DNA from: Candidatus Zixiibacteriota bacterium
GTDB taxonomy: Bacteria > Zixibacteria > MSB-5A5 > GN15 > JAAZOE01
Assembly (NCBI GenBank): GCA_043819555.1
Contig: JBDREQ010000031.1
Coordinates: 31,233-95,232 of the forward strand
DNA: 64,000 nt
Reading direction: 5' to 3'
Shown one piece after another: positions 2,881 to 64,000 of the stretch (position 1 is its first letter; each line of letters starts with the position of its first letter). The position numbers were made by a program, and so were the translations under genes. The notes beneath the pieces are model-generated. The model worked only from the letters and a program-made list of their open reading frames with translations, was not told where the DNA came from and ran no database searches.

Positions 2881-3615
2881 TTAATATTCCCCATGTTTTG
2901 CTTTTGGTATTATGGCGAACACAATCGTTCCTCCGCCCGGATTTGGCGAAATTTCTATCGAACCACTATGCAAATTAATCAGGCTTTTAGCGACTGCCAA
3001 CCCCAGCCCCGTTCCACCGGCTCGGTGTGTTATAAACGGAAGTAAAATCTCGGCATATTGCTCATCAAAAACACCACTGCCATTATCTTCGACCTTAATA
3101 ATCGCATTGTCGCCATCGAAATCAGTTGAGACAATTATTTGGCCGTCCTCGTTGCCTTTTAATTCTTGTATGGAATTAATAAGTATTTCTCTGAATATCA
3201 GCCTGATCATTTCCACGTCGCAGCAGATCATTGGAAGAGGAGTTAAATTCCCGTATTTTATGTTTATGTTTTTGAAATCATCTCCGAAAGAAGTCGTAAC
3301 ATTTTCGAATTCCTTAAGGCATATTTCATTGATATCGGTTTCAATTATATCCGGCTGGCGCGGCGCCGCATAGAGCATATACCTGATTAATACCTCTTCC
3401 AGATTTTCAGCGGCTTCCAAAATCACTTTTGTGAAATACAAATCATCATCGGTAATAGTTTGCCCGACCGAAAAATCAAGCTGGCTGGCGGCAGTGGTGA
3501 TGACACTTAATGGATTTCGAATCTTGTGCGTCAATCGCTCCGCTAATCTTTCCAATGTTTCAGGAGCGTGCAAATTAACCTCTTTCCTGGATGTCCCTAT
3601 CGCCGTCTTTGCCAT
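2881..3615 (-). CDS. Sensorless histidine kinase (HisKA + HATPase_c)
   Basis: H-box THKIRNPL, N-box EILINS, DNGSG, PF, GTGLGL; no N-terminal sensor or TM segment. Confidence 0.88.
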   Translation of the reverse strand: MAKTAIGTSRKEVNLHAPETLERLAERLTHKIRNPLSVITTAASQLDFSVGQTITDDDLYFTKVILEAAENLEEVLIRYMLYAAPRQPDIIETDINEICLKEFENVTTSFGDDFKNINIKYGNLTPLPMICCDVEMIRLIFREILINSIQELKGNEDGQIIVSTDFDGDNAIIKVEDNGSGVFDEQYAEILLPFITHRAGGTGLGLAVAKSLINLHSGSIEISPNPGGGTIVFAIIPKAKHGEY

Positions 3616-20622: not shown

Positions 20623-21795
20623 TTACGGATTATCAAGAGTGAAAATCTGAACTCGTCCGTTATGGCCGTCGGCTACATATAGTTTATTTCCGTGCAGGCG
20701 GGCGTCATACGGCGCGAGAAACATTCCCGGGGCGTCGCCTGGACCTGCCAATCCGGATGTTTCCCAACCCATCGTAACGGTACTATCGGATTTTCCGCCC
20801 AGCCATCCGATAAAATGACCGTCAATATCGAATTTCTGAATGCGATGATTGGTGTTGTCGGTTATTATCATGAATTCATTATTGACCAGTTGCAGAGAAA
20901 CCGGGGCATTGAATCCGCCCGGTAAATCCGACGCGGTGGACAGACCGGTGTTTTCCCAGCCGTCGGTCAATCCTCCGGCGGCGCGGCCTCCAATCCAGCC
21001 AAGGAATTGGCCGTCCTGGCTGAATTTCTGGACGCGATGATTTCCCGTTTCGACGACATATAGATTTCCGGCATCATCGACCTGAACCATATGCGGCTTA
21101 AAAAATCCGCCCGGTTCGTACGATATTTGTGCCGAACCGGTATCGGCGAAACCGTTGGTCATGGCGCCCGAAGCGTATTGGCCCATCCACCCGATTAGAT
21201 CTCCGGCCGGATTAAATTTGAAAATCCGATGAGCGTTAAAATCGCTGACCCAGAGATTAAAATCATTATCAAAATTCGCATTGGCGCAACCGTCAAAACC
21301 GAGTTCCGGGCGGGACGGAGGATCAAAAAACAATCCTTTAAATATGCCCAATGAAGAATAAATATGGACGCGTCCGTTCAGATAGTCGGCAACATAGATA
21401 TTGCCGGCCCGGTCAAAATCAACCGAGTGCGGCATATTCAACATGCCTATTTCGGTTCCTCGGTCAGGCTGGCCGGAGAAATGCCACCCTGATTCGGAAT
21501 TGGCAACGCCTTCGACCATGCCGAGCCATCCTCTGAATTGCAGACGGCGATCAAATCGCACGACGCGGCCTTCTTTCAGTTCGGAAACGTAGATGTCTCC
21601 GCTGGGTTTGACGGTTATTCCATACGGCCCGACGAAGCCAGAAATGATGTTAAGTCCTCCGCCATCATATTCCGCGTTTTCCGTTGTCCACTGCGATTCA
21701 ATTAACATTAAGTCGAAAAGCCTCTTGCATGATACCAGACTGAGTAGAATAATTCCCAGCAGTATAACGCTTTTATATTTGTTAGAAAAAGACAT
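20623..21795 (-). CDS. NHL-repeat beta-propeller lipoprotein
   Basis: Lipobox LVSC; repeated P..V.VD..GN.YVAD..N.R.Q.F units. Confidence 0.85.
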   Translation of the reverse strand: MSFSNKYKSVILLGIILLSLVSCKRLFDLMLIESQWTTENAEYDGGGLNIISGFVGPYGITVKPSGDIYVSELKEGRVVRFDRRLQFRGWLGMVEGVANSESGWHFSGQPDRGTEIGMLNMPHSVDFDRAGNIYVADYLNGRVHIYSSLGIFKGLFFDPPSRPELGFDGCANANFDNDFNLWVSDFNAHRIFKFNPAGDLIGWMGQYASGAMTNGFADTGSAQISYEPGGFFKPHMVQVDDAGNLYVVETGNHRVQKFSQDGQFLGWIGGRAAGGLTDGWENTGLSTASDLPGGFNAPVSLQLVNNEFMIITDNTNHRIQKFDIDGHFIGWLGGKSDSTVTMGWETSGLAGPGDAPGMFLAPYDARLHGNKLYVADGHNGRVQIFTLDNP

Positions 21796-52475: not shown

Positions 52476-53795
52476 TTAATTAATATCGATCTGACCGGTC
52501 AGCTTTTGTATTTCCAGAAAAGTAATTCGGGCGCTGTACCGGGCCGAGATTAAAGCTATTTGAGCTCGGCTAAAACTTACTTGAGCATCCCGAAACTCAA
52601 GCGAGCTTGAGGACCCCAGTTGATAACGATCATTCTGCAATTCGAGATTTTGCGCGGCGGCTCTTACATTTTGCTCTTCAAGCTCGACCAGTTTCAAATA
52701 ACGCAGAAATGATTCATATTTTTCATTTACCAGTCCGGACAGTTGTATTTCCCGCTCACGCAGGTTCAATGTTTGATTTTTTGCCGTTAATCGCGCCGTC
52801 TGGAGATTAACCCGGTCGCTGCCGCCATTGAATAAATTATATGATAGATTGAGGCCGATATTCCCATCGGTACTATGCGAAGTTATATCCTCACCGACAT
52901 CGCGCGCTGTCGTTCGGTCGGAATATCCGTAAGCGGCCTGCAATGATACTCGAGGCAGGAATTTGGCGCGGGCGAGACCGATGTCTTTATCAGCCACAAT
53001 TTTCCCCTGGCGGGTCAGGCGCAAACCGCTGTTTTTTTCCATGGCCAAATCCAGAAGTTGATCATAAGTCATATTTAAGAGAGGGATATCGATTTCTTTT
53101 ATGACAGAAATTTCCCGCGCCGGATTTTGTCCGAGCAGGACGTTTAAGTTTTTGCGAGCGATTACAGCCAGCATTTCCTGATTTAAGTATATCGCTTCGT
53201 CATTGTTGAATGATACCCGGGCGTTCAATAAATCAGTCGATGACGCGCCTCCGACATCATGTCGCACCTGTTCCTTTTCCAAACGAGTTTGTGATATTTC
53301 CATTGTTTCCCGGGAGACATCGAGGAGCATTTCCTGACGAACCAGATTAAAATAGGCCGCCGAAATAGCGACCACAAGATTTTCAATAATTTCCTGGGAT
53401 TGATAAGTTCCCAGACGGGACAAAGCATTGAATCGAGATTTATTGGAAAACATTCCGAGGCCGTCAAAAAGTGTCCAGTTGAGTGATAATTGCCCCGAGA
53501 TATTTTCTGCGTCAGTATTCCCGAAACTAAACGGGGAATTAGTTTCTACATTACTTTGGCTTAATGAATAACTACCAGCGGCGTCGATTTTGGGTAAAAA
53601 ACCGGCCGTTCCCAAAGATGCGTTTTGCTCCGCGATACGACCCAGATTGCGGGCGATCTGAATATTGTTGTTTTGTTTCAGACCTGTTTTTACAGCATCT
53701 TCCAGAGTCAAATTACTTTGACCATACGAATTAATCGCGCAGAACGCGGGGATGAAGATAGATAATATAAATCGTCTGACATATATGAAGCGCAA
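52476..53795 (-). CDS. TolC family outer-membrane factor
   Basis: Signal peptide, LTLEDAV, FLP..., LFDG/LFNG repeats, AYFNL, RYQLG. Confidence 0.92.
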   Translation of the reverse strand: MRFIYVRRFILSIFIPAFCAINSYGQSNLTLEDAVKTGLKQNNNIQIARNLGRIAEQNASLGTAGFLPKIDAAGSYSLSQSNVETNSPFSFGNTDAENISGQLSLNWTLFDGLGMFSNKSRFNALSRLGTYQSQEIIENLVVAISAAYFNLVRQEMLLDVSRETMEISQTRLEKEQVRHDVGGASSTDLLNARVSFNNDEAIYLNQEMLAVIARKNLNVLLGQNPAREISVIKEIDIPLLNMTYDQLLDLAMEKNSGLRLTRQGKIVADKDIGLARAKFLPRVSLQAAYGYSDRTTARDVGEDITSHSTDGNIGLNLSYNLFNGGSDRVNLQTARLTAKNQTLNLREREIQLSGLVNEKYESFLRYLKLVELEEQNVRAAAQNLELQNDRYQLGSSSSLEFRDAQVSFSRAQIALISARYSARITFLEIQKLTGQIDIN

Positions 53796-53812
53796 AATAA
53801 AACCTCCCGCAA

Positions 53813-56800
53813 TTACTCAATTGGTATAGTTTGCAATTCCTTAACCGCCGGTTCCACCGATTCGCTGGTTACCTGCCGATTCATGAAAAACTTGGCGGCC
53901 CGTACGCGGATATCATTGACCACCAGAAAAGTCGCCGGTAATATCAAAAGCAGAATCAATGTCCCGAACACCAAGCCATAGGCGACTGAAATCGCCATAG
54001 GAATTAAAAATTGAGCCTGTCGGCTTGTTTCCAGTATCAAAGGCGCAAGGCCCAACGCAGTCGTCATCGTTGTTAAAATAATCGGGCGCAAACGGGTCAG
54101 TCCGGCATTATGAATGGCATCGAATACTCTCTCGCCATTTTTTAAATTGCGGTTAATTTGATCGACAAGGACAATGCTGTCATTGATAATAATTCCGGAT
54201 AGAGCAATAACGCCGAATATCGACAACATATTTAGCTGAATACCATGAATTCCATGACCCCAGATTGCTCCAAGAAAGCCAATAGGAATTAATGAGAAAA
54301 TAATCATCGCCTGCAGATATGAACGGAAGACAAGAACCACTAATATTACCATCGCTATAAGCGCAAGCGGAAATGCCCGGCGAATGGATGCCTGACTCTT
54401 GGCCTGGTCGCGCGTCTGACCTTCAAACGAAAAGTTTACGCCCGATACTTGCGCCAACACACGCGGCATAACCTCAAATTCTATTTCATTCAGAATCGGC
54501 GGCAAGTCATCGCCGACATTCGCCTGATTGGCTTCGACTTTAATCTCGCGCATGCGATCAAGATGATTAATACTGGTCACGCCTCGTTCGATATTATAAT
54601 TGGCCAGTTCGGAAAATGGATACTCCTCGCCGGTCCGGGTGCGTATTCGCATATTATCGAGAAATCCCAGGGCCGCCCGTTCTTCCGGCCGATATCTGAC
54701 CCAGACCCGTATTTCATCGCGGCCGCGCTGGATTCTTTGAATCTCCTGTCCGAAAAATCCCTGGCGCACCTGCCCGGCAATATCTCTTAATGTTAATCCC
54801 AGAGCATGAGCCCTCGGTTTGAGGGTGATATTAACTTCCCGCCGTCCCTTATTATCAGAATCCGTGATATCCTTCAAAGTTGTAAAGTCCATGAGTTCAG
54901 CCAGTAATAGCTCTTTGGCAGTCTGTAATTGATCAGGGTCCTTGCTTAGCAGACTCACTGAAACGGCTTTTCCAAAATGGCCTGACTGCCCGAAGGTCAT
55001 ATTGCGAACTTCGGAAATGTTCCCAACTTTATCTCGAATGCGATTGCCGATTATGTAACTTTCCATTTTCCTTTCTTCGCCATCAAGCAATTGGATGGTC
55101 AAACTGCCGGCATGACCGCCCGATTCTCCCAGAGTATTGGATCCAATATCCCTTTTAATGCCCAGTATGACATCTAATGAATCGTCTCGTTCGGTTTTTA
55201 TTTCCTCGTTAACTTCCCAGGCGATCCTTTCGATTCTTTGCAATATGGCGTCGGTATCGGTTTCCTGACGTCCAGAGACCAAAGAAACATTGACCGGAAT
55301 TACATCTGAATCAACGTAAGGGAAAAACGTCGCACCGATATGCCCGCCGAATACCAGACCGATAGTCATTAAAGCCAGCGCGATAGGGGAGGCGATCACC
55401 AGCCATTTATATTTCAGAGTTGTCTTCAGGATCGGAGAATATATATCATGCGTCAGTTTGTGAATGAACTTTTCAATCTTTTTGCGGATGGGAGGGTCCT
55501 CGCTATGAAGCCGCAGTCCTTTTGAATGGGCCAGGTGTGAAGGAAGAATCAGAAGGGCTTCAACCAGCGAAAACATCAGCGACGCCCCGACGACAAGCGC
55601 CATCTGCCAGATAAATTTGCCCATAATACCGTCTAGAAAATAAAACGGCATAAAAGCCATAATGGTTGTCAGGACGGAGGTTACCACCGGAGCCATTACA
55701 TCTTTGGTGCCATTAATGGCTGCCGAATAGGCGCTTTCTCCTCTTTCAAAACGAGCGTAGATTCTCTCGCCGACGACAATGGCATCATCAACGAGGATAC
55801 CGACGACGATAATCATGCCAAACAGCGAGATGACATTGATTGTGATACCAACGGCGTTAGCGATGATAAACATCCCCGCAAAGGAGAAAGGGATGCTTAT
55901 CGCGACCCAGAAAGATAATCGTAAATTCAGGAAAAACCCAAGAGCGATAATAACCAGAACCAAACCGATGATTCCGTTTTTAACCAGAAGCTCAACGCGC
56001 TGGCGCAGAGGAATCGTCTGGTCGTCGAGAATTTTAGCCTCAACAGTATCATGCTCAAGATTGAATTTCGCGATTTCATCTTTGGTTGCATCAGCAATTT
56101 TAATGATATCTTCCTGCTGGGTGCGGTCAATGTTTATGATAACGGCGTTGCGCCCATTATAGAAGCTCTTATCCGGGACGTCTTCCCATTGTTCTTTGAC
56201 TTCGGCCACATCGCGCAGGTAAATGCTGGTTCCATTCGAATTGCCGCGGATGGGGATTTTCAATAACTCGGCCGTGAAGTAACCCTGACCCCAGGCGCGG
56301 ATAAGAATCTCTTCGTCGGTAGTTTCGAATTTTCCTCCGGAAATATTTACATTCGCCTGTCTGATAGCATTGGATATCTCATCAAATGTAAGTTGGTAAC
56401 GGCGCAAATCGGATTCGGATACTTCTATGGAAAATTCCAGATCGGGCAGCCCCTGCATGGATACCTGGGATATTTCAGGGCGGGCCAATAATGCATCTCG
56501 AAACTCCTCAGCGATAAATTTTAAATTATATAAGTCGGCCTCACCGTACAAGACAACCGACAGAGATCGCATGCGGAATTCCTGCTGGAAAATTACCGGT
56601 TTTTCGCTATTTTCAGGAAACGAGCTAATCCGGTCAACCGCGTTTTTTACATCATTCAGAACTTTGTCAATATTGGCTCCCTTGATTATCTCAATCGTAA
56701 CCTGCCCGATATTCTCACGGGAAACCGAAGTTATCCGATCAACACCCTCAAGACCATCAAGCTGTTCCTCAATTTTTAAGACTACCCCCTCAGCGACTTC

Positions 56801-56974
56801 ATCCGGCGAAGCACCCGGGTATGGGACCATGACATTGATTATATCGGGCGTCGTTTCCGGGAAAAACGAAAAGGTCATCTGCGACAATGAAATTAGGCCA
56901 AATACGATAATGCCTAATTTTAAAACCGTCACCCAGACGGGAAAACGAATCATATAGGCGATTAATTTGTTCAT
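53813..56974 (-). CDS. RND efflux permease (AcrB/CzcA superfamily)
   Basis: YPGASP, GILVDDAIVV, RLRPIILT, PMAISVAYG. Confidence 0.95.
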   Translation of the reverse strand: MNKLIAYMIRFPVWVTVLKLGIIVFGLISLSQMTFSFFPETTPDIINVMVPYPGASPDEVAEGVVLKIEEQLDGLEGVDRITSVSRENIGQVTIEIIKGANIDKVLNDVKNAVDRISSFPENSEKPVIFQQEFRMRSLSVVLYGEADLYNLKFIAEEFRDALLARPEISQVSMQGLPDLEFSIEVSESDLRRYQLTFDEISNAIRQANVNISGGKFETTDEEILIRAWGQGYFTAELLKIPIRGNSNGTSIYLRDVAEVKEQWEDVPDKSFYNGRNAVIINIDRTQQEDIIKIADATKDEIAKFNLEHDTVEAKILDDQTIPLRQRVELLVKNGIIGLVLVIIALGFFLNLRLSFWVAISIPFSFAGMFIIANAVGITINVISLFGMIIVVGILVDDAIVVGERIYARFERGESAYSAAINGTKDVMAPVVTSVLTTIMAFMPFYFLDGIMGKFIWQMALVVGASLMFSLVEALLILPSHLAHSKGLRLHSEDPPIRKKIEKFIHKLTHDIYSPILKTTLKYKWLVIASPIALALMTIGLVFGGHIGATFFPYVDSDVIPVNVSLVSGRQETDTDAILQRIERIAWEVNEEIKTERDDSLDVILGIKRDIGSNTLGESGGHAGSLTIQLLDGEERKMESYIIGNRIRDKVGNISEVRNMTFGQSGHFGKAVSVSLLSKDPDQLQTAKELLLAELMDFTTLKDITDSDNKGRREVNITLKPRAHALGLTLRDIAGQVRQGFFGQEIQRIQRGRDEIRVWVRYRPEERAALGFLDNMRIRTRTGEEYPFSELANYNIERGVTSINHLDRMREIKVEANQANVGDDLPPILNEIEFEVMPRVLAQVSGVNFSFEGQTRDQAKSQASIRRAFPLALIAMVILVVLVFRSYLQAMIIFSLIPIGFLGAIWGHGIHGIQLNMLSIFGVIALSGIIINDSIVLVDQINRNLKNGERVFDAIHNAGLTRLRPIILTTMTTALGLAPLILETSRQAQFLIPMAISVAYGLVFGTLILLLILPATFLVVNDIRVRAAKFFMNRQVTSESVEPAVKELQTIPIE

Positions 56975-58119
56975 AACTGCCCCGAGAGATCGTTAGAAAT
57001 TAACCTCGCTTTGGCCGGCATTCCTGACGCCACGCCCTGCAAGACCTCGACCACCAGTGTATCCCCTGTGGACAATCCATGATTGACAATAACGTTGTCA
57101 GATTCCTTGCGAATTATAGTAATCTGGCGCAAATCCAATTTACCTGAATTGACGAGATAGACATATTTCTCATTGTATAAGGCTTTGCGAGGCACCAAAA
57201 CAGCGTTTTCAAACGTAATTCCCTGAATATCGGCCCGCAGGAAAGCCCCGTCTAATATAGCCGCATTGTTTCCATTGTTTATCGAAATATAAACTGGCAC
57301 GGTTTGAGTCCGTGAATCAATTGCGCTTCCGATCCTCAGTATTTTGCCCAACCATTCACCTTGCACCTCGGACGAAGTGAATCTAACGGTTGCGTTTTTA
57401 TCCATCTGCGCCAGATCATTGACGCCAACGGTTACTTCAACTTCAAGATGTTCCAGATTAATAATGTCGCCCAATAATGAACCTGCCCGAACAGTGGAAC
57501 CGATTCGCAAATCGGCTCGAATAATCGAACCGTCAAACGGGGCCTGAATATAATGTTTTTCCAGCCTTATCTCTAAATCCCGAACGGCAAAATACAGTTT
57601 ATAGACATTGAATCGGGATAGAAACATCCTTATTTTCGGATTTATAGTTTCCGGTAAATCCTCAAGAAGCTTGTCAAACTCGCAGGAATTGAAATAATCC
57701 TGCCAGACTTTGAATTCGCCGGGGAAATCAACTTTGATTTCAGGCAGTAACGAAGCTAATGCATTCAGCAAATCACTTTTGGCGCTATTCAGGTTCATAA
57801 GGGCCTGACGGTCATCGATTTTTAATAAAAGATCGCCTTGTTTGAAAGATTGAGCCGGCTGGAAAGGTATTTGGCCCTCCATAATAGTCCCCGTAGTTTC
57901 ACTAAAAAGCTGTACCGGCTGTGAACTGGAAACCCGTCCAAAGGCGGTAATCGTGGCCGGAACGGTTCCGGTTTCAACAACTATCGATTCGACTATTTTT
58001 ACTTTTGGAGATGAAGTTCTTTTTGGCGTGTCTTCTTTCAAACTTATCAAGGCAACCAGGGATATTATGCCCGCTGCCATGATTATTATAAAAGTCAATA
58101 TTTTCCCACGGGTATTCAT
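56971..58119 (-). CDS. RND periplasmic adaptor (MFP)
   Basis: N-terminal TM, GDLLLKIDD, IQAPFDG, ID..TQT, GL..GD. Confidence 0.92.
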   Translation of the reverse strand: MNTRGKILTFIIIMAAGIISLVALISLKEDTPKRTSSPKVKIVESIVVETGTVPATITAFGRVSSSQPVQLFSETTGTIMEGQIPFQPAQSFKQGDLLLKIDDRQALMNLNSAKSDLLNALASLLPEIKVDFPGEFKVWQDYFNSCEFDKLLEDLPETINPKIRMFLSRFNVYKLYFAVRDLEIRLEKHYIQAPFDGSIIRADLRIGSTVRAGSLLGDIINLEHLEVEVTVGVNDLAQMDKNATVRFTSSEVQGEWLGKILRIGSAIDSRTQTVPVYISINNGNNAAILDGAFLRADIQGITFENAVLVPRKALYNEKYVYLVNSGKLDLRQITIIRKESDNVIVNHGLSTGDTLVVEVLQGVASGMPAKARLISNDLSGQL

Positions 58120-58221
58120 TTATATGCCCCTTCCTTTAATCATTTGTTGTACTCGCAAGTTCATTAACCAATATTTGTTGCCAAGGTTCAAATCTTTGTC
58201 AATTCATGTCCTGACCAAATA

Positions 58222-58239
58222 TAGTTGCAGATACAACTA
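58222..58239. promoter_or_regulatory. Candidate MarR operator at the marR stop codon
   Basis: TAGTTG-CAGATA-CAACTA, same dyad as 58708-58736. Confidence 0.6.
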
Positions 58240-58689
58240 ATTCTCCAATTTCGCGAGATTATTCATAATAATCTCAAGAACCTCTTTGCAGGCCATAAGC
58301 CGGTTTTTGCTGATTCCTTTCAGGGCTTCTTCATGCATTTGATCAACAACCTTCATTAATTTGGGGCAGAGAGATTTCCCTTCATGGGTCAAATAAATCA
58401 TATTCTGCCGGCGATCGGTCTTATCCGGCACGCGCACTGCCAGGTTGCGTTTTTCCAGACCGTCAATCATTCGCACTGTACTGGTTTTGTTGTTGTCGAG
58501 GATTTCTGAAATTTGCCGTTGGTTCATTCCCTCCCGATCCCAGAGATTGCAAATTACGATCAACTGCTCGGCGGTAACGTCATAGCCCCGCTCAGATAAT
58601 ATTTTTTGAAGACGATTGCGCAGGCTTTTGCGGGTCATGCCGATCATGCGGCCGAGGGCGTGATGAAATCTGTCTTTGGCATCAAGCAT
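58237..58689 (-). CDS. MarR family regulator
   Basis: VTAEQ, Q..I, RMIDGLEKR, DRRQ..IYLT.EG. Confidence 0.92.
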   Translation of the reverse strand: MLDAKDRFHHALGRMIGMTRKSLRNRLQKILSERGYDVTAEQLIVICNLWDREGMNQRQISEILDNNKTSTVRMIDGLEKRNLAVRVPDKTDRRQNMIYLTHEGKSLCPKLMKVVDQMHEEALKGISKNRLMACKEVLEIIMNNLAKLEN

Positions 58690-58707
58690 AGAATAAATCC
58701 AATATTA

Positions 58708-58736
58708 GTTGCATATGCAACAGTTGCATATATAAC
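58708..58736. promoter_or_regulatory. Tandem MarR operator candidates
   Basis: GTTGCATATGCAAC (perfect palindrome, 58708-58721) and GTTGCATATATAAC (58723-58736). Confidence 0.7.
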
Positions 58737-58869
58737 AAATATATTACGAAAGGCAAGCAATTTTTGAGAAGTTTGTTTGAAATTTATTTTATGATTACCT
58801 TATATTCTCCCTTTACAATAGCCCTGATTGTTGTATTTTTTGGTATAAGCAGATATGAGATATGATTCT

Positions 58870-60048
58870 ATGGAAAAAACACTATTCACCATATGCGCTG
58901 TTTTATGCATGACGTTACCCGGTTTTGCGGTTGAGCCGCAATCTTTGGATGAAGCTAAGACTCTGTCCAATCAAACCGGCAAGCCGCTTCTTCTTGAATT
59001 TTATCGAGACGACTGAGAATACTGCGAACTGGCCGCTCGTGAAGCGGAAAGTGAAGCGGCGATGATAAATGCCCTGGGGCATGTCGTCCATTATTCAATG
59101 TGCGTTCAGTATGGCGAGGGTCTCGAATTATCGCCCCGATATCATGTTGGCAGTACTTACCCGGTTTTTATTTTGGCTAACAGCCGCGGCGAACCGATCC
59201 AGCGCTGGAGCGGTTTTTCCACAGCTCAACAATTCGTCTCGCAACTGCAATCATCAATGTCGGACCTGACATCAATTGACGAACAAGTAAAACGTTTTAA
59301 CGATAAGCCCACATTTCGAGATGCTATAACGCTTGCCAAATATCATGCCGATACCAAACAGTTTTTGAAGGCGATTGAATACTATGAAAAAGCTCAAACT
59401 CTTATAACCGGAAGAAAGCTCGATTATTCTTATCAGATTTTTACCAATACCGCCAATGCCGTCTGGTCTGATTCTCTGCCGTTTGATAAATTACTGGCGA
59501 CCGCTGGCAGCGTTTTTCAAAATCGCAAAAACGTCAATAACATTATCCAGACCATCAAAATCCTGGGACGGGCGGCACGCAAAAAAGACAGAACCGACGC
59601 ACTGGGCAGCTATTTAAGATTCGGACTTGAGATAACAGCTAACGCCAAAGACGATAATTCCAAAGGCGCCCATTCCGAATTTGCAATAGATACGATTTTA
59701 TATGTGACCCGAGACACAGCGACAGCAATCAGAGCCAAAGAATTCAGTATGGGGCTGGGATGGCAAAATGACCCCAAACAGTTTTACCGCTATGCCGCAT
59801 GGTGTCTCGAACGGCAAATAAACCTTGCCAAGGCCGAAACGTATGCCCGCACTGCCGCCGACTGGGCCGAGCCCGGAGCTTATAAGGCAATGGCTCTTCA
59901 TCAATTAGCCAGTATTCTCGATATGCGAATGAAATACGACCAAGCTGTCAGGATAATGGAACTGGCTGTCGAAGAGGACCCGTCTCATGCGTATTATGCC
60001 AAAGAACTTCAGCGAATGAAAGACAATCTCGAAAACAGCCTGAAATAG
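58870..60048 (+). CDS. Exported thioredoxin-fold/TPR protein, probable selenoprotein (UEYC; TGA at 59014-59016)
   Basis: ATG 58870 is in frame with track ORF 59062: MEKTLFTICAVLCMTLPGFA-VEPQSLDEAKTLSNQTGKPLLLEFYRDD*EYCEL...; later TYP cis-Pro motif and TPR-like helices. Confidence 0.85.
59022..59059 (+). promoter_or_regulatory. Bacterial SECIS-like hairpin
   Basis: CCGCT-CGTGA-AGCGG apical stem-loop (59033-59047), loop starts 21 nt after UGA with GU at loop positions 2-3; ACT/AGT and CTGC/GCGG lower stems. Confidence 0.7.
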
Positions 60049-60157
60049 AAATTCATTTTCCATTTTCCCCCGCGACTTTTCCATGAAATGCATTAAATAA
60101 TTGAACCTTTTTATGGACTATATCGTCAATAAAAGTAAACCAAAACGTTCGGAGCAA

Positions 60158-62611
60158 ATGAGTATGCGTTTTTTGAAGATGTATTATGGATTTTTGGGAT
60201 TAATTTTTATTTTATCTGCAAGCTCAGTGGTAATGGCTGATGACGAGTATAAGCCTGTTTTCCATCCCCAAATCCATATTTCCCGCGCGCCGGGAGAAAT
60301 AAAAATTGATGGTGCGATAAACGATCCCGGATGGAAGAATGCCGCCATAGCCGACCATTTTGTTGAGAATGAACCCGGCGACCAGATAAAACCTCCGGTT
60401 GATACCAAAGTGCTTGTTACTTACGATGATAATAATCTGTATCTGGCTTTTATATGCTATGATAATCCCGAAGATGTCCGGGCTTCATTTTGTGAACGGG
60501 ACCGGATATTTAACGACGACAATATCGGATTCTTTTTCGATACATATGGCGAAGCAGCCTGGTCGTATATGTTTAATGTCAATCCCTACGGCTTTCAATA
60601 TGACGCCATCGGGGTCAATGATTATGGCGAGGACGATGGGTTTGATTTGGTCTGGCGATCGGAGGGCCAGATCACCGATTCGGGGTGGCAGGTGGAAGTG
60701 GCTATGCCGTTTTCGGGACTTCGCTTCCCCAACCGGGAGGAACAGGTCTGGCGGATCGAATTCTGGAGGCATTATAGTCGAGATATGCACCATAGCATTT
60801 CCTGGTCTGCTTACGACCGCAATGAATCGTGTTGGCGCTGCAACTGGGGAACGATGACCGGTCTGAAAGATATTAAGCCGGGGAAGGGTGTGGAAGTTTT
60901 GGCTTCGGCTATTGGTTTTCAATCGGGCTCACTAAATCAGGTCGGAATTTCATCCGATGGTGTTCTCGATACGCTTTGCTTTCACAATGAGAAGCTGGAT
61001 GGAGATGGATCATTGGGAATAAAATATTCCCCATCTTCCAATTTTACTCTGGAAGCGACACTCAATCCCGATTTCAGCCAGGTTGAAGCCGATGCCGGCC
61101 AGATTGATGTTAATTCGACAACGGCGCTGCAATTTCCTGAAAGAAGGCCATTTTTTCAAGAAGGAATAGATATCTTTCGCACTCAATTCAATGCCGTTTA
61201 TACTCGAATGATAAACGATCCTTTTTTCGCGGTTAAATCAACGGCTCGGATGGGGCGAACCAGTATCGGTTACATGGGCGCTTTTGATGAAAGTTCTCCG
61301 GTAATAATTCCTTTTGAAGAAGGCAGTTCGCCGACCTTTAATGCAGACACTACTTTTACCAATATTGTTCGTGTTCGCCAGACTTTTGGTGCCAACTCTC
61401 AGGTTGGTTTACTGGCGACCGACCGCCGATTCAAAGGCGGAGGCTCGAGTACAATTATGGGCATTGATGGGAGTTTGAGGCTCAGCAGTAATTTTACAGT
61501 TAACGGACAGATTCTTACCACGCGGACTATTGAACCGGATGATACGACAATTACATTATTAGGTTCTGATCCCCAAATGCATATAGAAACGGCAACTAAT
61601 GATACTACTTATTATAATGCCTACGATACACTTTTATTTGATGATATACATAATGCCACATTCAATGGCGAGTCCTTCTCGGGGCATGGCTTTCGAGGCG
61701 CTTTAAATTACGGTGATCGGAACCTGTTTGCCGGAGCAAGTTACAGAGAGTATAGTCCCACCTTCCGGCTTGATAACGGATATGAACCGCGCAATAACCG
61801 ACGCGAAATCGATTTCAATACTAACTACATATTGCGTTATGACGAGGGATTGATAGAGTCAATTTCTCCAAGTATGAATCTGGCTCGCGTGTGGAACTTT
61901 GATGGAAAAAAGAAGGACGAGTGGATTAATGCCGGTATTAATTTTAACTTCCGAAAAGCCCAATCTCATTATAATATGATGTATATGCGGAGCACTGAAA
62001 CCTATGGCGGTGTGTACTTTGGAGATATCTGGGACTGGAATTTTCATAGCTGCGCCACGCCAAGCAAATATATTTCCCTTGGTACGACAGTGACTTATGG
62101 CAATCGGGTAGCGCGCGGACCCAAAATTATGGGCAGGCAGTTGGGATGGGCTGGGGTAGTTGATATCCGGCCGGATGACCGATTGCAGATATCGTTTAGT
62201 TATAATTATATCCAGAGCCGGGCATCGGAAGATAAATACAAATTGGATGATTTGGGAGATTCCGTTTTGGTAATTGCCACCGATTATATGCTCTTCAAGG
62301 GCCATATTTTCCGCACGCGTTTGAATTATCAACACAACAAGGAATTATCGGTTCGGCTCGTCGTTCAATATGATTATTTCGGTGATTCCTGGGATATAGA
62401 TCCGTTAATTACCTATCGGTTGACACCGTTTTCAATGTTTTACATCGGGACCACGTATGATTACCAAAATCTTTATAACCATAGTGGCCAGAATCTTGGA
62501 CGACAGTTTGATGACCCGGTTGTTTACAATGAATCCGGTACATCTTACAATTCAACGAAATTGACATCGCGGCAGATTTTCATGAAATTGCAATATTTGT
62601 TCCAGATATAG
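60158..62611 (+). CDS. CBM9-like/DUF5916 domain outer-membrane protein
   Basis: Signal peptide, IDG..D..W..A, YDDNNLY, NP.G.Q.D, W.VE..MPFS.LRF, TLNPDFSQVEAD, FPERRPFFQEG, C-terminal KLQYLF. Confidence 0.85.
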   Translation: MSMRFLKMYYGFLGLIFILSASSVVMADDEYKPVFHPQIHISRAPGEIKIDGAINDPGWKNAAIADHFVENEPGDQIKPPVDTKVLVTYDDNNLYLAFICYDNPEDVRASFCERDRIFNDDNIGFFFDTYGEAAWSYMFNVNPYGFQYDAIGVNDYGEDDGFDLVWRSEGQITDSGWQVEVAMPFSGLRFPNREEQVWRIEFWRHYSRDMHHSISWSAYDRNESCWRCNWGTMTGLKDIKPGKGVEVLASAIGFQSGSLNQVGISSDGVLDTLCFHNEKLDGDGSLGIKYSPSSNFTLEATLNPDFSQVEADAGQIDVNSTTALQFPERRPFFQEGIDIFRTQFNAVYTRMINDPFFAVKSTARMGRTSIGYMGAFDESSPVIIPFEEGSSPTFNADTTFTNIVRVRQTFGANSQVGLLATDRRFKGGGSSTIMGIDGSLRLSSNFTVNGQILTTRTIEPDDTTITLLGSDPQMHIETATNDTTYYNAYDTLLFDDIHNATFNGESFSGHGFRGALNYGDRNLFAGASYREYSPTFRLDNGYEPRNNRREIDFNTNYILRYDEGLIESISPSMNLARVWNFDGKKKDEWINAGINFNFRKAQSHYNMMYMRSTETYGGVYFGDIWDWNFHSCATPSKYISLGTTVTYGNRVARGPKIMGRQLGWAGVVDIRPDDRLQISFSYNYIQSRASEDKYKLDDLGDSVLVIATDYMLFKGHIFRTRLNYQHNKELSVRLVVQYDYFGDSWDIDPLITYRLTPFSMFYIGTTYDYQNLYNHSGQNLGRQFDDPVVYNESGTSYNSTKLTSRQIFMKLQYLFQI

Positions 62612-62651: not shown

Positions 62652-62684
62652 AAAAGCCGTCTTTGATATAGAGGCGGTTTTTTA
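62652..62684. terminator. Bidirectional terminator between convergent genes
   Basis: AAAAGCCGTCT...AGAGGCGGTTTTTT. Confidence 0.7.
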
Positions 62685-63641
62685 TTCATATCGTAAAGCA
62701 ATGATAGGATCGACCCGCGAAGCCCGCCAGGCCGGATACACACCGGCTGTCATTCCGGTTCCGATTGAGACGGCCAGACCCGCAAATGTCCATATAAACG
62801 ATAAGTGATAATGCCAATCAAGCGATGCTGTAATTACCAATCCCACTAAAGCCCCGAAAAATATGCCGATAAGTCCCCCGACTCCGGTTAAAGTTCCGGC
62901 TTCGACGAGAAACTGAAACAGAATATTTTTTCGCCTCGCTCCGAGGGCTTTGCGGATGCCGATTTCGCGAGTTCTTTGAGTCACCGATATTAGCATTATA
63001 TTCAGTACCCCGATAACGCCGACTAATAGGCCAACGCAGGCGACTGCCACGGCAACCATGTGAACCGTTCCGACAATATCATTTATCATGTTTTTAAATC
63101 GTTCCTGAGTTTGGAAACCGAAATTATTTGGGTCTTCCGGCCGCAATTTGCGAACTCTTCGAAGAGCGTTTACAATCTGATCCATCGCCTCGCCAAACAT
63201 ATCTCTGGAGATAGCGCTGGCCAGTAAATAGACCTGATTTGTGTTCGGATAATATTGGTCAAAAGTAGTCATTGGGATGTAAATGAAGTCATTTTCACTG
63301 ATGCCGAAGAAATCGTCAATTTCTTCCTGGACGCCGATAACATTAAAAGCATAACCGTTAACTTTGATTTCCTTCCCAATAGCGTCTTCACGATGATCAA
63401 AAAGAGCGTCGGCAACGGCGGGACCGATAACGCATACCTTTGATGCCCGTCGCATATCATTATCGTCGATGAACCGGCCATTCGACACGTCGCGATTAGT
63501 AACAATGGCTTGTTCCGGCCAGCAACCCCGAAAATCATCAGGCGACCTGATTTCGCGGTCCATATATTTGGCGACATTGCGATAGGCTTTTTTTTCAGGC
63601 GAGACGGCTTTAATTAAGGGGCACATATCCCTGATTGCCAG
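62682..63641 (-). pseudogene. 3' part of a MacB/FtsX-type ABC permease, interrupted by an integrated element
   Basis: LAIRDMCPLIKAVSP, GRFI, VCVIG, VGVIGVLNIMLISVTQRTREIGIRKALGA, QFLVEA, PA.RAS..DPI.ALRYE; lacks the N-terminal TM1 region. Confidence 0.88.
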
Positions 63642-64000
63642 CCAAAAATCAGAACCACTCCCTTCAACAAGCAAATTGAAGGGTTTTGTGTATGTGGGAT
63701 AAAGAGTTAAATCTTTTATTGTGCAGTTCGAAAGTAATTTCCTTAACAGTTTTCCCTGTTCCTCTGTAGTTTGCCTAACATAATGCGAATAAATACCTTG
63801 AGCGAGTTCTAAAAATTCAACACCCTCTTGATAATAATCAGTATTGGCCGTTTCCAATCTCTGAATCTGTAACGAAATTGCATTCTGTTCTGTTATCCAG
63901 TTCTCGTGTTGCTTTTGCCAAAATCCAGTATTTATACGCCCTTCAATCTTATCCAAATAACAATTGTCAAGTTTTTCTTGAAGTCCAGAATGCTTACGTC
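63627..64000 (-). mobile_element. End of an integrative element: C-terminus of a large serine recombinase plus att junction
   Basis: Frame open to the window edge: LQEKLDNCYLDKIEGRI...W..EQ...LELAQ...LLSNC...YTKPFNLL...FWLAIRD. GC drops across the junction (hand counts: 31/60 at 63421-63480, 19/60 at 63661-63720). Confidence 0.75.

Follow-up and report, generated by a model that had tools for sequence, protein, structure and literature searches.

The open reading frame called at position 59062 on the forward strand of the window (the whole stretch of DNA analysed here, 64,000 nucleotides) raises the question of where its gene begins, whether a TGA codon in front of it is a stop or encodes selenocysteine (Sec), and what kind of protein results. 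The table-11 call begins at 59062, and the same frame is open for another 64 codons upstream, to an ATG at 58870, with a single TGA at 59014-59016 inside. An earlier note on this DNA had drawn attention to this hidden extension, and read-through translation bears out the frame: the product from ATG 58870 comprises 392 amino acids and contains GKPLLLEFYRDD-U-EYC. The features discussed below are the following, where representatives are the best 150 of the 292 (50% clusters) retrieved by a profile search at E <= 1e-30 and residues are counted from ATG 58870 unless referred to the model.

58841..58849, forward strand: possible extended -10 element TG-n-TATAAG, seen in the sequence, five bases before ATG 58855
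58855..60048, forward strand: full gene read through the TGA, 397 amino acids from ATG 58855, stop codon TAG
58855..58929, forward strand: predicted cleavable signal peptide ending ...LPGFA, from the sequence pattern and the hydrophobicity of homologues
58930..59265, forward strand: thioredoxin-fold domain (Thioredoxin_2/Thioredoxin_7-like), from Pfam and fold matches
59014..59016, forward strand: TGA, very probable selenocysteine codon for U49, from the codons at 92 homologous sites (58 TGA, 34 TGC/TGT)
59023..59025, forward strand: C52, second residue of UxxC, Cys in all 83 of the 150 representatives that cover the column
59033..59047, forward strand: SECIS upper stem-loop CCGCU-CGUGA-AGCGG, from fold, comparative pairing and covariation
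59158..59163, forward strand: Y97-P98, with Pro in 144 of 150 representatives, preceded by Y in 84 and F in 45
59275..60042, forward strand: all-helical TPR-like solenoid, model residues 116 to 371, from the helices and TPR matches
59800..59805, forward strand: conserved W311-C312 in the TPR part, from alignment conservation

The frame of the earlier note thus stood, open to 58870, but translation probably begins five codons before that, at an in-frame ATG at 58855, since the same-genus orthologue has an ATG there and an ATA at the position of 58870. The TG-n-TATAAG motif recurs with identical spacing in this orthologue, is absent from the promoter-scan list, and so near to ATG 58855 would hint weakly at a leaderless mRNA; no SD-like motif precedes the ATG of the gene or that of the same-genus orthologue. 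Note that promoter and terminator counts were at chance level (14 vs 10.3 and 6 vs 4.7, respectively). As a family-wide trait a leaderless start was rejected, as an SD-like motif precedes 42 of 78 homologue starts; a -10-like motif was seen in 15 of the 78. One 158-nt contig of an RNA run covers 59964-60121 and is too short for any inference on expression or co-transcription.

The earlier note had located the TGA exactly at the first cysteine of a thioredoxin CxxC motif (D-U-E-Y-C) and had suggested looking for a pairing of Cys and TGA codons in homologues. Of 122 family loci, 30 were set aside as duplicates or because the column was missing from them, and at the remaining 92 distinct sites the pairing is evident: the codon is TGA in 58, TGC in 28 and TGT in 6 cases, and no other codon, TAA and TAG included, was found. 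The reading frames of the TGA-form homologues are open past this codon. The note would have given up the idea for a TGA limited to one genome with no conserved hairpin, and this is not so, as both TGA and hairpin are kept across relatives. The machinery that it had proposed to look for is complete in the genome (97% complete), where selA, selB, selC and selD all score above their cut-offs; selA and selB are adjacent on one contig (C33), selD contains an in-frame TGA of its own, and the tRNA-Sec(UCA), at 74.3 bits, is the sole tRNA with a UCA anticodon. A TGA-bearing relative, G011 (93% complete), gave no match for selA, selB or tRNA-Sec. It does carry a TGA-containing selD, and in its congener G002 selC and selA are only 11 kb apart, so that a single assembly gap could account for the missing genes and is the simplest reading. 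In a further genome, G058, the match for selA is partial, with selB, selC and selD present. Judged by these comparisons residue 49 is almost certainly selenocysteine, and SelB would bind the hairpin 21 nt past the UGA and deliver Sec-tRNA at codon 49.

That the TGA is instead a true stop, be it a nonsense mutation, an assembly error or the end of a short peptide gene that precedes a distinct 328-aa TPR gene, is very unlikely. Gene callers do deposit 14 of the 27 close database matches as proteins of 316-332 amino acids without the N-terminus, called hypothetical where they are named, and the base at the TGA is without read confirmation, as none of the contigs from four public sequencing runs spans 59014-59016. 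Nevertheless, TGA recurs at 58 of 92 distinct sites, is never replaced by TAA or TAG, always occupies the position of the catalytic cysteine and is accompanied by the hairpin, and according to the structure model a cut here would land within the folded thioredoxin domain. One intact gene that is not split at the TGA is the best explanation. Global recoding of TGA to Trp or Gly, considered improbable already in the earlier note, has the in-frame TGA itself in its favour and nothing more, and it is exceedingly unlikely, as TGA terminates 287 of the 1,175 long open reading frames that end in a stop codon in this genome and is therefore not globally recoded, the only UCA-anticodon tRNA is tRNA-Sec, and homologues hold Cys, not Trp, at this column.

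The hairpin CCGCU-CGUGA-AGCGG had likewise been pointed out before, with a loop 21 nt downstream and GU near the loop start, and it was recovered as described. The arms, 59033-59037 and 59043-59047, enclose a loop (59038-59042) that starts 21 nt after the TGA and has G and then U at positions 2-3, and the element belongs to the minimum-energy fold of -17.2 kcal/mol; a lower stem (59022-59059) forms in the gene studied here and is not conserved. The bSECIS model (PMC13188914) allows a loop of 3-9 nt with G among its two leading positions, an upper stem of 4-16 bp, a spacing of 16-37 nt and an MFE <= -7.5. Compared by hand, the loop of 5 nt (CGUGA), the stem of 5 bp, the spacing of 21 nt and the energy of -17.2 kcal/mol agree with every one of these values, so that the assignment to the bacterial SECIS model holds. 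The 47-nt fold gave z = -3.19, with 0 of 200 shuffles as low, and the 26-nt hairpin alone z = -0.84, with 37 of 200 as low. Rfam returned no SECIS match within 58000-61000. Since a loose hairpin filter lets through 916 of the genome's 12,548 frame-flanked TGA codons, the hairpin by itself is weak evidence; it is the comparative data that raise the case above chance.

At fixed register, 55 of 58 TGA forms have all five pairs of the stem, with four of five in the remaining three, versus 3 of 34 Cys forms with the full stem, and stem plus nGTG loop are found in 53 of 58 versus 2 of 34. When seven pairs were counted on 56 distinct TGA rows, 84% of the cells pair and 37 cells change on both sides, as compared to 31-47% of cells pairing in slid controls. 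None of 500 shuffles reached the paired fraction or the number of double changes, but such counts are not p-values, as the rows share ancestry, the hairpin lies within coding sequence, and a Cys control (14 rows, 53% of cells pairing) yet beats its shuffles on covariation (1/500). Across 13 close Sec forms, fixation at the hairpin's four fourfold-degenerate sites amounts to 85-100%, versus a mean of 53% for 42 such sites elsewhere, two of which reach 84%.

The family is patchy, present in 63 of 201 genomes of the phylum and at an additional 27 metagenome loci, while selA was detected in 191 of the 201. An NCBI protein labelled candidate division Zixibacteria is 84% identical to the gene product, and a search for related loci in genome contigs gave a single distant locus. 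With the Sec column and the SECIS-coded residues masked, 89 family rows (without 3 short ones) and 8 outgroup sequences were placed in a FastTree tree; 16 Sec/Cys changes are needed on it, of which well-supported branches force at least 7. For the 27 closest rows, an IQ-TREE tree requires 5 changes, with at least 3 forced. The full SECIS-like stem and a CGTGA loop persist in two Cys orthologues (TGC/TGT), L156 and L092, and as each of these stands beside Sec relatives in the tree they are likely recent Sec-to-Cys changes. Several genomes hold a second family copy (L149-L163, L166) from a W-U-G-x-C / W-C-G-P-C subfamily in which the hairpin register is unchanged, and in some two-copy genomes one copy has Sec and the other Cys. 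Repeated change from Sec to Cys is favoured by these sequences, because the hairpin register is common to both subfamilies and L156 and L092 retain the hairpin; gene transfer could mimic such a pattern. Given that Cys orthologues are common even in Sec-making genomes, Sec in this family seems best explained as a swappable upgrade. The alternation, in a phylum with selA in nearly every genome, amounts to a clean natural experiment, in which the benefit of Sec over Cys becomes testable with pairs of close orthologues.

The expectation that standard pipelines truncate the gene is borne out by the 14 shortened database proteins: full-length entries with Cys carry the name thioredoxin family or TPR protein, while Sec forms enter the databases as hypothetical or TPR proteins that lack signal peptide and active site. 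Among the best 150 of 292 representatives, 67 are without the catalytic column, some of these being fragments at contig ends. Truncated homologues were also named from Candidatus Eisenbacteria and Krumholzibacteria, and these may contain Sec as well. Reading through the TGA thus fixes a systematic annotation error and restores the signal peptide and active site that are missing from the Sec forms.

The genome holds further candidates, some of them from two crude genome-wide screens that do not amount to a full selenoproteome. A second, shorter exported thioredoxin-TPR gene of 320 amino acids with K-U-P-W-C (L052:2436-3404, reverse strand, G000:C76, TGA at 53747) is located between gcvPA and gcvPB-like genes, has the hairpin TCGATAC-CGTGAC-GTATCGA and shares 22% identity with the present protein over 150 amino acids; its relatives likewise alternate between TGA and TGY. 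A protein of secreted appearance that has T-T-U-P-F-C within a glutaredoxin/Omp28-like domain, and PKD and dockerin domains in addition (L167:383-1843, reverse strand, G000:C15, TGA at 21015), is probably another selenoprotein by its sequence, its TGA being followed by ACGCC-CGTGA-GGCGT with a loop identical to that of our gene. A HesB/IscA-like protein with G-U-S-G-P (L168:243-614, reverse strand, G000:C73, TGA at 199696) is of a catalogued selenoprotein type. In a large secreted-looking frame (L170, reverse strand, G000:C49, TGA at 3581), 229 codons precede and 1192 follow a single TGA, with a hairpin loop beginning about 14 nt past it; this TGA is either a nonsense change or an atypical Sec codon.

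The upstream extension adds the signal peptide that the earlier note had foreseen, as predicted from the sequence pattern. In a hydrophobicity check run with no negative control, an N-terminal hydrophobic stretch was present in all 90 testable homologues (of 92), and the protein would be exported via this peptide. For the thioredoxin part, Pfam matches remained below cut-off, with PF13899 at E 6.6e-5 and PF13098 at E 7e-5 (23.6 bits against 27). A structure model of the mature chain, calculated with Cys substituted for Sec, reached a pLDDT of 95.4 and a pTM of 0.88 and consists of a thioredoxin domain (residues 1-112) and an all-helical solenoid. As evidenced by fold searches, residues 1-112 match DsbH (2ju5; Z 14.2, rmsd 2.1, 109 aligned) and also 2kuc (Z 14.2; rmsd 2.1-2.2 taken with 2ju5), 2lst and DsbD-gamma, and the C-terminal remainder matches TPR arrays, in support of the thioredoxin and TPR-like protein proposed before. 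Y97-P98 is at what we take to be the position of the thioredoxin cis-proline loop. In the TPR part, C312 is kept in 47 of 47 rows of alignment A1 and in 138 of 150 representatives, and is accompanied by C350 in 76 of the 150. An ESM Atlas search with a Cys orthologue (P0006) returned similar-looking thioredoxin-TPR clusters from several phyla, all of them automatically named.

As to function, we infer that the protein is probably a periplasmic disulfide reductase or isomerase fed by DsbD, with Sec at U49 and a TPR part that binds clients. The genome encodes a 647-aa DsbD in whose sequence the alpha, membrane and gamma cysteine pairs are visible, DsbB and VKOR were not found in the genome at its 97% completeness, and the nearest folds are those of envelope reductants, and it is for these reasons that this reading is favoured. 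DsbH and DsbD-gamma act as reductants of the envelope. There, U49 and C52 would cycle between selenolate/thiol and selenenyl-sulfide states, with electrons coming from the full-length DsbD, and the protein would act on the reducing side, reducing or reshuffling wrong or oxidised disulfides of exported proteins, while the TPR solenoid would hold a client or partner complex. Counting against a DsbD-fed role, the genome has other exported thioredoxin-like proteins that are possible DsbD partners. A CcdA-like membrane protein (L175, G000:C39) adjoins a cysteine-rich protein and a corrinoid protein gene that, by sequence appearance, we take to be HgcA-like.

No neighbouring gene is shared throughout the 27 orthologue loci, and none points to a client or to DsbD. 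A DUF5916/CBM9-like gene is located downstream in the three closest genomes only, and MarR-efflux genes are located upstream in two genomes only. In the window the latter set occupies 52476-58689 on the reverse strand, divergent from the thioredoxin-TPR gene, with a MarR regulator followed by an RND-type efflux set of membrane fusion protein, transporter and TolC-like protein, all but MarR named by sequence appearance; it is linked to our gene in the same genus only. Separately, on the reverse strand at 62682-64000, a MacB/FtsX permease gene is represented by its 3' two-thirds, joined without loss of frame to about 119 codons; judging by motif, we take these to resemble the tail of a serine recombinase. 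The N-terminus of the permease was not found elsewhere in the assembly, and by appearance an element has inserted into the permease gene where the contig ends.

An alternative that we consider unlikely is that the protein is mainly an envelope chaperedoxin, whose TPR part would hold unfolded exported proteins under oxidative stress while Sec49 or C312 forms protective mixed bonds. The domain order is that of CnoX/YbbN, whose structures 3qou and 3qdn come fifth and sixth in Foldseek (E 9.3e-5 and 2.1e-4), and according to PMC8129009 the mixed disulfides of CnoX use a cysteine away from the CxxC-type motif, a role for which C312, kept in 138 of 150 representatives, could be the counterpart. The whole-chain TM-score to YbbN is merely 0.23, however, and the clients of CnoX are handed to cytoplasmic GroEL/DnaK (same source), out of reach for an exported protein. 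The intact C/UxxC suggests catalysis, and C312 may be merely structural, given C350 as its companion in half of the representatives. A bolder version, in which an exported CnoX counterpart uses selenium, the Sec-thioredoxin repairs clients cradled by the TPR part and W-C312 is a second redox site, is rather unlikely. If it were true, the gene would belong to a larger redox system of the Zixibacteria envelope that is based on selenium, as suggested by the observation that three or more thioredoxin-fold selenoproteins appear to be exported in this genome's case, each with CGUGA as its SECIS loop.

Quite unlikely, too, is a DsbA-like oxidase, a peroxidase or a metal- or metalloid-binding selenoprotein. 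The unusual motif D-U-E-Y-C in place of W-C-G-P-C speaks for such a function, as does the failure to find DsbB and VKOR, which leaves the cell's route of disulfide formation open. In the model, however, the thioredoxin domain is without the helical insertion that is part of DsbA anatomy, the best fold matches are of the DsbH and DsbD-gamma types, and W-C-G-P-C, a motif typical of reducing thioredoxins, is seen in the deeper subfamily (30 of 82 full-length representatives). A DsbD-fed reductase or isomerase thus remains the reading that we prefer.

The known system closest in its thioredoxin part is the pair of DsbH (PDB 2ju5) and DsbD gamma, the nearest solved domains with Z 14.2 and 12.5 (DsbD-gamma E 4e-6), both about 21-23% identical to the present protein and both without TPR solenoid and Sec. 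CnoX/YbbN (PDB 3qou) shares an N-terminal thioredoxin domain followed by a TPR domain, but according to PMC8129009 it is a cytoplasmic GroEL/DnaK partner with SxxC in E. coli and no Sec, whereas the present protein has a predicted signal peptide, UxxC and a longer solenoid; membership was rejected on the grounds of predicted location, given the signal-like stretch in every testable homologue. The NCBIfam family NF041199, a Trx7/PDZ (seleno)protein, likewise combines a Thioredoxin_7-like domain with a protein-binding domain in about 390 amino acids, but the score was 12.6 bits (residues 25-53 only) against a cut-off of 300, there is TPR here and PDZ there, with no PDZ match in Pfam, and UxxC here contrasts with CxxU in the catalogue, so that membership was rejected as well. 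No NCBIfam family scored over its cut-off for this protein or three homologues. The known UxxC selenoproteins, 'Thiol:disulfide interchange protein' (PF13098) and Sec-thioredoxin (PF00085) in Table 1 of PMC13188914, have in common with it the thioredoxin fold, Sec at the first CxxC position, a SECIS within the reading frame and the existence of Cys homologues, and our protein adds a signal peptide and a TPR-like solenoid of about 255 amino acids. In its mode of action it would resemble these UxxC selenoproteins. It may belong to the PF13098 family (listed representative WP_011366075.1), with the sub-threshold Pfam score given above and with precomputed PF13098 matches for many full-length Cys homologues. 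The literature searched on Zixibacteria selenoproteins and on thioredoxin/TPR selenoproteins yielded no description of the family; in the portions available, PMC12013277 has no TPR or thioredoxin term and bioRxiv 10.1101/2022.07.06.499078 no TPR term. The BSepDB supplement (PMC13326102) has 7 Zixibacteria genomes among those examined, so that family members may already be present there under a generic thioredoxin name. The combination of signal peptide, thioredoxin and TPR is absent from the 119-family selenoprotein catalogue, and the architecture is uncatalogued, although its class, UxxC in a thioredoxin fold, is the commonest among bacterial selenoproteins. The bacterial selenoproteome thereby gains an exported thioredoxin-TPR architecture, which is useful to the specialist rather than surprising.
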